Assembly: GCF_044647545.1 (NCBI RefSeq)
Contig: NZ_CP172818.1
Strand: one strand, 5' to 3'
Source of the DNA: Escherichia coli
GTDB lineage: Bacteria > Pseudomonadota > Gammaproteobacteria > Enterobacterales > Enterobacteriaceae
Length of the DNA stretch: 64,000 nucleotides
Shown: positions 27,801 to 30,800 of the stretch, in pieces
Position numbering within the stretch: position 1 is the stretch's first letter
Layout: every line of letters begins with the position of its first letter
Position numbers: made by a program

Positions 27801-30800
27801 CAAACGAAAACCGCCAACTATATTCGTCGCGGATGATAAAAAGGCAGGTGCTTCGCTGAAAATCATATCGAATGTGATTTCATAATCTGGTGGCGATAAA
27901 TACAACGGCATAGTTGGGGGGAATGTGATGGGTCGACATATTAGGCTCCGGAAGGAGTACGGAGAAGGATTATCAATTCCTGCCGTCGAAAAATGACCGA
28001 TTTCGTGAACGGAAGAATCACGCGTACATTTAGAAAAGGCAGTGCTCCCACCGTTCACCTTCAAACCACCAGCGGGACAAAGAACCAAGGACCAAACCGC
28101 GGGGAGCCGAAAGCAAAGGGAAAAAAAAAAAAAAAAAAAAAAAAAAACAAAAGAAAAAAAAAAACAAACAAAGAGAAAACCAAAAAAACAATACCTCCTA
28201 GAGGCATATCAAAGCACAAGCCCACACAGCGGAAAGAGGCATACAGTCCTCGGTTAATTATCCACTCTTTTGGCATCTCTGAATCGGTTTGTTTACATAC
28301 CGTACCGGCAAAAGTTTCAACTGTGAGCAAATCGACTGATTTTGTTGACGGTTCGAACGTGGAGACGAAATAGATATCCGTCTTAAAATTCTTCATACAT
28401 CTGACTAAATGATGACGTCGCAGTTTGACTTCTTCATCCGGTGACTTATTCGACACTTCAATATCATATTTAAATGAATTGCCAAAAATAGGTGTCTCAG
28501 GAAAGTTGACTAATCTACACTCCGTCTTTTGCTGTTGACGTATTAAAAAAGAAGGGAAGATATTTGCGAGATCCCAATAATCACGGTGGCGGTATTCACG
28601 GGGAGAGCAGCCGAATAACTTTTTAAATTCGCGGCTGAATGACTGCTGTGAATCAAAATGCAAAGAGAGTGCAATATCAAGCATAGATTTCGCGGAGAGC
28701 CGGACAAGAATGGCGGCACGACAAAGCCTTCGTTTGCGAATGTATTCTCCCAAAGGCACATGCATGAAATTTCGGAACAGAAGCTGGATGTTGCGTCTGC
28801 TGTAGCCAGATTTCTGTGCGATATCTTCGATTGAAATAGGGTGCTCAAGATTGCACTCAATCCACTCCAGGAGCTGCTGTAGAATCTTCTGCCTGATCAT
28901 CACATACTCCGTTAATTCTTTGTCATATCGCACATTTTCGTTATGTCCTGGGCCCTAAGTGTATCAAAAACAGCAAGGCGCAAGGAAAAAGCACTGATAG
29001 CGTCTGCTTCATTGCCCCAAAAATAGAGAGATTTCTGCCCTCCATTATTAATGAATTTTTTGCATAAGTGATATCAAAATCCACATACTAATTTGAGGTT
29101 ACGTTTTAACGTAGACTCATTGCTCATACCTAATGGAGGGACTGACAGTGGAATTTTCCGTATAATCTGCTTCAGAGTATTGCAGATGCCCATCAAAAAT
29201 CGATTTCTCAGGTCATTCTGCGTTGGAATATTCAACGGGGAGTGGTCGTTATTCCGAAATCGACACATCAACAGCGTATCGAAAAAAATTTTGCTATTTG
29301 GGATTTCTCACTGACAGAGAAAGAAATGGCGCAAATTAGTTCGCTTGATTTGGGTTATGTTGGGGAATCGGTAAAACATTTTAATCCTGAGTTTGTTCGT
29401 GGTTGTCTTGCTGTAAAAATACATGATTGATATTAATCACTTATTTTACCTGAGACGACAAGAATCTTTTATCAGGGGAGTGATATTGATCTTCACTCTG
29501 TCATATCTCCGGTAATATGGCGTCAGGCTTCATTAACAGAAAGGGGGCCTGACGCCTGAAAAAGTGAACAACAGACAGTGTTCGGATTATCAATATTCAG
29601 TTTTTAACGTTGAACTGGATTCATTACTGCGTTGTTTAAGAATATCCCGCGCCGAATCTGCCATTATCATGACAGCACCTGCCAGCATCAGAGTATCTTT
29701 CAATACCAGGCGACCAGCACCGGATAAATAAGGGAAACCATGATGAGCGTCACCCAATGCGGGTACCCATGCCTCCGGGGTGGTGATTAAAAATGAGAGT
29801 GTTACCAGCGGCGTGGTAAATGCCATCAGCCCACCCAATAAACCTAACCAGCGATTGACAGGATTAGCCAAAACCAGCAGAGCAATAATCACCTCCACGA
29901 CGCCAAGACCGTTGGAAAAACCATAGGTATTATTAGCCGATTGCCATGCCCTTGCTTCTGGTTTGTATTCGCCTTCGTGAGTCAGATACTGTTTATAGTC
30001 TTCCGGGTGTTCATAAAAGAACGACATTAGTGGACTGTTTGCGACGAATGGTGTAATGCTGTCTGCCTCGTAAGGGACAAACTTTAATAACCCAATCCAC
30101 ATAAAAACAATCGCAATACTCAGACGAATCAATGTCAGGCCAATTTTATCTCCCCGACTTAACAAGTGCAGGTATTTCTCCATTGTAAACATCCTTATTT
30201 ATACAATACTGCTGTTGCGGTTGAATTATTATCAATTCGCATCGATGTGACTTTCCAGGATGAAGCATTATATTTTCTGGCCATATCAGCAATGGCATCC
30301 TCCAGAACTGTCGGTGATGCTGATACTGACGAGACGCTGATATGTTTCAGAATTATTTTATCATCTGCATTGGTGGAAAATGCCATAACGCCAGATAATA
30401 GTGTTGCAAATAAAACAGGTTTTTTAAACATATAAAATACCATCAATGAAGTGATTAAGAAGTTATATAATAACAGGGAATTAATAAGATTCTTTTCTCT
30501 GAGACGCCAGAATATTTGTTCTGGCGTCTGATTTTGAGTTTATTTGACTAATGAAAATAGATCATTGAGTGATTCGCTCATCGACGGATGAGTAAATATC
30601 TGATCGCGTAATATGCTATAAGGCAGCCCGGCATCCATCACCATTTTCACTATATTGATCATCTCGTGGGAGTCAACACACAGCAGTGATGCCCCTAATA
30701 TACATTGGGTTTTATTATCAACAATCGCTTTTAATACCCCACGGGTATCGTTCATCACTCTGGCGCGCGGAATTGCAGCTACAGGCAATGTCACCACCTG

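Follow-up and report, generated by a model that had tools for sequence, protein, structure and literature searches.

A 27-nucleotide poly(A) tract at the ykgA 3' end of an Escherichia coli sequence, probably the degenerate end of a consensus or assembly artefact

A poly(A) run inside the ykgA reading frame

Whether a long, uninterrupted run of adenines within the reading frame of a regulatory gene belongs to the genome of an Escherichia coli strain, or instead entered the sequence while it was being built, is the question raised by the ykgA locus in a 64,000-nucleotide stretch of DNA (hereafter, the window). Direct reading of the window places an uninterrupted run of 27 A at positions 28121–28147. 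An uninterrupted tract of 30 A had originally been predicted within 28118–28193; the tract itself is present, and its length is corrected here to 27 nt. The A-rich sequence of low complexity that was said to follow the run is also seen, in the form of CAAAAG, a run of 11 A (28154–28164), and further A-rich sequence to ~28189, with the base composition of 28101–28200 amounting to 71% A and 3% T. By our own arithmetic, ~3e-12 runs of at least 27 A would be expected by chance in 64 kb with an A content of 25%. Homopolymers in 124 kb of reference DNA covering the same region do not exceed 7–8 nt, and the maximum reported for the coding genes of MG1655 is 9 nt (PMC5574713). The original prediction had held such tracts to be essentially absent from E. 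coli coding DNA.

The tract falls, as predicted, inside the minus-strand open reading frame (ORF) of the AraC-family gene ykgA, for which an N-terminal AraC-type helix-turn-helix (HTH) is present (HTH_18, E = 2.2e-19; HTH_AraC, E = 3.7e-16) and for which residues 1–224 of the product are identical to the ST648-type reference protein. Past residue 224, the window protein is unrelated to the reference, with residues 225–285 replaced. The A27 run is read as nine consecutive Phe (FFFFFFFFF), and neither the last 61 codons nor the natural stop is retained, bearing out both the poly-Phe translation and the removal of the stop that had been described. A match to the complete C-terminal GyrI-like domain, which the reference YkgA gives (E = 3.6e-12, residues 127–283), was not obtained for the window ORF, and the 279-aa product of this ORF was not found on record. 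The genuine part of the gene is nearly coextensive with the ykgA remnant kept in K-12, for which the IS3 junction maps to ~28241/28242. An ORF finder would read ykgA through the filler beyond this part, so that the protein gains a poly-Phe tail and the stop codon seems to be missing.

Comparison with the reference ykgA 3' end, the check that had been proposed alongside the original prediction, found ordinary sequence at this position in the reference. The A27 run and its adjoining filler (108 bp) stand in place of ~306 bp, consisting of the intergenic spacer and the last 61 ykgA codons, and the start of the run coincides with the expected position of the fdeC stop codon and AT-rich spacer in the intact allele. 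The tract is the tail end of a degraded block that extends from 25773 to 28227.

The degraded block and the K-12 IS3 junctions

The locus has the order fdeC (eaeH)–ykgA–aldo/keto reductase–rclCBA–rclR–ykgEFG, and the genomes most similar to the window in this neighbourhood are of the ST648 type, for example FDAARGOS_497 (NZ_CP033850). The window is identical to FDAARGOS_497 from 24346 to 25772, and from 28225 to ~46900 the differences amount to five substitutions, a 2-bp deletion, and a 585-bp deletion at 29162/29163. Flank identity is 99.9–100% to the ST648 type and 95–97% to the K-12 type, right up to the borders of the block. While the flanks, YkgA residues 1–224, and the gene order through rclCBA–rclR–ykgEFG are held in common with the intact ST648-type locus, the block itself is not, with 3.68 kb of the reference (the fdeC 3' part, spacer, and ykgA 3' end) compressed to 2.46 kb in the window. 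In FDAARGOS_497 the corresponding intact segment occupies NZ_CP033850.1 2663721–2667403. The reference has an intact fdeC (1,417 aa), a normal spacer, and a YkgA of 285 aa that includes a GyrI-like domain and ends at its natural stop.

Damage within the block becomes severe beyond its onset (Table 1). The onset is marked by deletions of 1–3 bp (at 25773, 25918, 25978, 26388, and 26393) and a G>A change at 26226, and these indels break the fdeC reading frame. In the garbled part of the block, the loss of reference bases is uneven (G, 61%; T, 57%; C, 47%; A, 35%), a pattern seen on this strand only, and we know of no mutational process that gives strand-asymmetric, base-specific loss of this kind. 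As a separate observation, fdeC contains repeated (Ig-like) domains, and part of the block can be aligned to it at two positions.

Table 1. Coordinates of features at the fdeC–ykgA locus and of related features elsewhere in the window
Feature	Position	Strand	Remarks
Intact fdeC/eaeH 5' part, first 876 bp	24897–25772	+	0 differences from ST648-type reference
Block onset, fdeC still recognisable	25773–26452	+	Window-specific small indels
Fully garbled part	26453–28120	+	Deletion-rich copy of fdeC 3' half, 65–88% identity in patches, IS3-derived stretches interleaved
A/C-rich block, almost without G	26701–26900		Inside garbled part
C10 run	26799–26808		Inside garbled part
A10 run	26905–26914		Inside garbled part
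IS3-like stretch (IS3 482–640)	26983–27168	+	E = 8e-13
IS3-like stretch (IS3 968–1156)	27667–27895	+	E = 2e-15; exact 15-mers in common with IS3
ykgA ORF through tract	28061–28933	-	GTG start; 279 aa if begun at reference ATG 28900
Probably spurious C-terminal extension, including FFFFFFFFF	28061–28227	-	ORF read through garbled DNA
GGG	28118–28120		Directly 5' of A27 run
A-rich, T-poor filler, including A11 run	28148–28227		A11 run at 28154–28164
Genuine ykgA part (AraC-type HTH regulator), residues 1–224	28228–28900	-	Identical to ST648-type reference
K-12-type 585-bp deletion junction in aldo/keto reductase gene	29162/29163		ST648-type SNPs on both sides
prpB–prpC spacer, probable sibling artefact	61235–61287		C17 run (61235–61251) and A11 run (61277–61287)

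Both borders of the block are close to positions at which the K-12 locus is interrupted. In K-12-type strains, one 1.26-kb copy of IS3 occupies the place of the 3.68-kb fdeC–ykgA segment of ST648-type strains, giving eaeH' (876 bp)–IS3–'ykgA (654 bp) with the intervening segment deleted, and the eaeH' remnant of K-12 corresponds to the first 876 bp of fdeC, which are intact in the window. Divergence begins with the loss of CTG at 25773, which converts CTCTT-CTG-ACCC to CTCTT-ACCC, the exact string of the K-12 eaeH/IS3 junction (CTT^ACCC), after which the window carries on as fdeC. The last difference, at 28227, is 13 bp short of the right K-12 junction between IS3 and ykgA (~28241).

Between these junctions, the two IS3-like stretches are colinear and on the same strand (~67% identity), and are interleaved and partly overlapping with stretches derived from fdeC. 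The block has 157 12-mers in common with the intact fdeC–ykgA reference and 12 with the plus strand of IS3 (control mean, 0.14; maximum, 2; 300 random E. coli segments of equal length), with no 12-mers shared with the IS3 minus strand. No biological process known to us would weave two unrelated sequences together in colinear order over such a length and at the same time strip G and T from a single strand. Colinear interleaving can arise when a consensus is forced across two templates that are not homologous.

The K-12-type arrangement eaeH'::IS3::'ykgA (PJ-T13/J53, CFS3292) has the same intact pieces of fdeC (876 bp) and ykgA (~660–673 bp) as the window, and the damage in the window lies between the IS3 junctions of this arrangement and holds IS3-like fragments. 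It differs in that the window has ST648-type flanks and no intact 1.26-kb IS3, and in that most of the block comes from the 3' half of fdeC, absent from K-12. A K-12-type eaeH::IS3 deletion allele was rejected as the identity of the locus, with a complete IS3 (~1.26 kb) absent between eaeH' and 'ykgA and two IS3-like stretches found there within a mostly fdeC-derived 2.46 kb.

Towards the tract, the content of the block becomes difficult to assign to either source. The filler at 28148–28227 has weak residual similarity to the intact allele (z = 2.3–2.7). Colinear similarity between the A-rich tract and the real spacer was likewise low (z = 2.65 for all bases, 2.29 without T, and 1.4 without G and T), and the same test was clearly positive for the A/C-only block at 26700–26900 (z = 7.7). 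The idea that the A-rich tract might be what remains, as a 'shadow', of the real spacer once G and T were lost was rejected on the weakness of this similarity (z = 1.4–2.65). Derivation of the right part of the tract from the right end of IS3 was also rejected, because its score was equalled by 141 of 500 control segments and is not significant. Almost no similarity to either template appears to be left in the tract, and the origin proposed for it below would follow from its position and not from its content.

The block was also sought in other genomes. None of the 5,110 locus-matching complete E. coli genomes covered at least 80% of 26500–29500, and the small indels of 25500–26470 were common to none of 5,010 genomes (best match, 98.8%). 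An intact fdeC allele that extends past the K-12 junction is present in at least 4,603 genomes. Exact matches to a 51-mer that spans the right border of the block were found neither among the GTDB species representatives nor in IMG/VR or the JGI metagenomes.

Further damage in the window

The damaged region extends well beyond the tract, which is its most conspicuous part, and the window holds further patches of this kind. Much of the CP4-6 prophage is included in positions 1–13379, which are K-12-exact except for 30 substitutions, all inside an IS1 copy. From 13 to 24 kb, the genes are intact and no single genome matches better than 98.3%. To the right of the block, the aldo/keto reductase gene has the K-12-type 585-bp deletion without the second, 92-bp deletion of K-12, and the combination of this junction with ST648 SNPs in one aligned piece occurred in 0 of 5,050 genomes.

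From ~46900 onwards, the window carries mostly K-12 alleles (discriminating sites: 519 K-12-type, 89 ST648-type, and 130 neither) and retains the K-12-only yahH insert. Approximately 61 frameshifting indels are present between 47 and 64 kb, fragmenting ORFs and affecting 11 conserved genes (yahD, yahE, fdrA, yahG, yahI, yahJ, yahL, yahM, prpC, prpD, and prpE), with patches of indels that alternate with error-free K-12 stretches (e.g., 57500–60500). At 52–54 kb and 61–62.5 kb (yahI, yahJ, and prpBCD), there are natural-looking differences from both references at third codon positions; these would imply that the sample is recombinant or that a third source of alleles, if not more, was involved.

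The spacer between prpB and prpC is of the short ST648 type and contains two homopolymers, of which the C17 run sits exactly at the site of a 400-bp REP array in K-12 and the A11 run holds 8 extra A's at a position with 9 extra bases in K-12. In addition, prpB has lost its stop codon and its ORF is fused. Each structural difference between K-12 and ST648 that was examined leaves a K-12 'ghost' or homopolymer filler in the window.

Origin of the block and alternative explanations

In all likelihood, the poly(A) tract does not belong to any organism's genome and marks the point of greatest degeneration, at the end of a 2.46-kb consensus or assembly artefact, a reading to which the sequence comparisons point. 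The block is unique in sequence, has borders at known breakpoints with error-free flanks, blends two alleles, and is accompanied by further patches of error. The original prediction had favoured an artefact for the tract, and that judgement is strengthened by its position in a degraded 2.46-kb block at the K-12 IS3 junctions, with a mixture of IS3 and fdeC that occurs in no other E. coli genome.

Reference-guided or mixed-template building is the most likely source of such an artefact, with ST648-like reads or sequence that would have been forced onto a K-12-type structure. Possible routes are reference-guided or iterative long-read consensus or polishing, or the consensus of mixed K-12 and non-K-12 templates, and at places where alignment between the templates failed, the consensus step would emit shortened filler of low complexity (A27, A11, C10, and A10). 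The evidence leans towards K-12 as a structural template over a simple mixture of two strains, because the 585-bp K-12 deletion junction carries ST648 SNPs and strain-specific regions of the window are K-12-exact. A simple reference-guided model alone does not explain the K-12-like but noisy sequence from 47 to 64 kb, a region that ST648 strains do carry, and the A/C identity of the filler is left unexplained by the artefact model.

Reference-biased or strain-collapsed consensus errors occur in assemblies of noisy reads. The window resembles such errors, as they are known generally and not from any specific pipeline, in its local indel-rich patches and breakpoints at structural variants, as well as in the pairing of one genome's structure with another's bases and in frameshifts within conserved genes, though a homopolymer filler of 27 nt is unusually extreme. 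As an artefact, the tract would matter for quality control only, with the window to be treated as a chimeric, partly corrupted E. coli sequence in which the frameshifted yah/prp genes, the fused prpB ORF, the odd homopolymers, and the broken fdeC should also be distrusted. The poly-Phe YkgA, the loss of the stop codon, and the hypermutability originally argued for the tract would be without biological meaning. Damage that is bounded by the IS junctions of another strain, with fragments of that IS interleaved, is a signature that may help to flag like artefacts.

It is unlikely that the sequence was computationally generated or deliberately corrupted, for instance by a DNA language model or as a synthetic K-12/ST648 mosaic, with a drift into low complexity where the sources disagree. 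The absence of the sequence from every collection searched, the mosaic of K-12-exact and ST648-exact stretches, and the progressive accumulation of errors ending in homopolymer collapse would all suit such an origin. However, the sequence returns immediately after the garbled block to a specific ST648-type allele and stays near base-perfect for 18.7 kb, which would be hard to achieve by free generation, and a K-12 structure with ST648 bases is what reference-anchored consensus calling yields. The biological verdict is the same under this explanation, namely that the tract is not a real feature.

An artefact confined to a single strain, in which the gap over the Ig-like repeats of fdeC in an ST648-like isolate was bridged by one or a few noisy, uncorrected long reads and no K-12 template was involved, is considered very improbable. 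The deletion-rich errors, the meaningless homopolymers, and the sudden switch back to error-free sequence are as expected of a low-quality patch, as are the repeated domains of fdeC and the stretch that aligns to two of its positions, but the colinear IS3-derived fragments, the coincidence of both borders with K-12 IS3 junctions, and the occurrence elsewhere of a K-12 deletion junction with ST648 SNPs and of K-12-exact stretches are not explained by it.

That the tract is real, with a decaying fdeC–ykgA pseudogene region having gained a hypermutable poly(A) by replication slippage or by the insertion of a polyadenylated cDNA, is scarcely credible. The locus is dispensable to the extent that fdeC and ykgA are pseudogenes in K-12, and the presence of the tract in the given sequence is the sole other point in favour of this account. 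There is no insertion, as 306 bp have been replaced, and the tract belongs to 2.4 kb of deletion damage that is strand-asymmetric and base-specific and has base-perfect sequence on either side, with IS3 fragments interleaved and similar junk at other structural differences in the window. The tract is also absent from 5,110 genomes and far exceeds the homopolymers of E. coli coding DNA (≤9 nt; PMC5574713). A reality for both the A27 run and the scrambled block in some isolate, through illegitimate recombination between IS3 and fdeC followed by runaway slippage, is given next to no weight; were the block real, no longer homopolymer would be known from any E. coli chromosome, and the 3' end of ykgA would carry a hypermutable site.

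The remaining candidates were rejected. A real recombinant of K-12 and ST648, whether from the laboratory or natural, would be expected to have clean alleles, and is insufficient as an explanation because the window has a K-12 deletion junction in ST648-type flanks as well as interleaved IS3 and fdeC. The contingency loci of bacterial pathogens have a long mononucleotide run within coding sequence, as does the window, and the position of their tracts is conserved across strains while the length varies, frameshifts toggle expression, and the flanks are intact. The window tract differs in having no conserved position, length variation, frameshift switch of expression, or intact flanks: none of the 5,110 genomes with the locus carries it, the reference site is ordinary (longest homopolymer, 7 nt), and beyond it there is no intact frame, the ykgA ORF having no YkgA homology there. 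A poly(A)-tailed retro-insertion (processed cDNA or non-LTR-type) is not consistent with 108 bp that replace ~306 bp, nor with an upstream sequence that is degraded fdeC and contains no foreign insert. Natural divergence, or recombination with a distant lineage, fails on the character of the differences, which are mostly deletions, biased by base and strand, and break every reading frame.

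Mosaic composition of the window

Judged by comparison with a K-12-type genome and the ST648 strain FDAARGOS_497 (NZ_CP033850), the window (1–64000) is a patchwork throughout, with segments that follow one or the other reference. Between 13000 and 24400 no single genome matched at >98.3%, though the genes there are intact nonetheless. Within the first 13.4 kb, 30 of the 30 differences from the K-12-type reference fall within the IS1 copy adjoining argF (1190–1930), which is therefore an isoform other than that carried by the compared genome at the same site, a difference that would fit a template overwritten by reads of other IS1 copies.

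Coordinates of the segments and features in the window
Feature	Coordinates	Description
K-12 segment	1–13379	Exact K-12 match, IS1 copy apart
ST648 segment	24346–25772	No difference from FDAARGOS_497
Near-identical ST648 segment	28228 to ~46900	Five substitutions and two deletions (one of 2 bp, the other of 585 bp at 29162/29163) are the only differences from FDAARGOS_497
Mainly K-12 segment	46900–64000	K-12 alleles predominate, with noisy patches
K-12-type 585-bp deletion junction	29162–29163	Aldo/keto reductase (ykgQ-like) gene
Frameshifted genes	47000–64000	yahD, yahE, fdrA, yahG, yahI, yahJ, yahL, yahM, prpC, prpD, prpE
C17 run and A11 run	61235–61287	prpB-prpC spacer

The aldo/keto reductase gene and nearby differences

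The 585-bp deletion junction is flanked on either side by ST648-type SNPs, and the same gene retains a 92-bp segment (29210–29302) that is gone from K-12, where it was lost between GATTTCTCA direct repeats. The junction, the ST648-type SNPs and the 92-bp segment occur together in one piece in none of the 5,050 E. coli genomes in the collection.

Elsewhere, two T are missing relative to the ST648 reference at 36934–36935, in a stretch that is otherwise perfect and close to where the K-12 and ST648 ykgH regions begin to diverge.

Indel patches and low-complexity tracts

Approximately 61 frameshifting indel events, the majority of them 1-bp deletions, were found between 47000 and 64000, in patches interspersed with stretches without errors (e.g., 57500–60500). 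Substitutions in yahE, fdrA, and yahG are distributed evenly across codon positions and so resemble errors. In yahI, yahJ, and prpBCD, substitutions fall mostly at third codon positions, a bias that gives them the look of natural allelic difference. In the prpB-prpC spacer, the C17 run occupies the site of a 400-bp REP array in K-12, and the extra A's lie where K-12 carries 9 additional bases; prpB is without its stop codon, resulting in a 318-aa ORF (60348–61304).

The block at 26701–26900 is nearly without G (4–5% G; A+C, 82%), yet its colinear similarity to the intact fdeC of ST648-type strains is still significant (z = 7.7). When G was stripped from this fdeC reference, the two aligned well, suggesting that particular bases had dropped out on one strand. 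In the ecpA-ecpR region, a T9 run (21201–21209) exceeds every homopolymer of the compared reference loci (7–8 nt).
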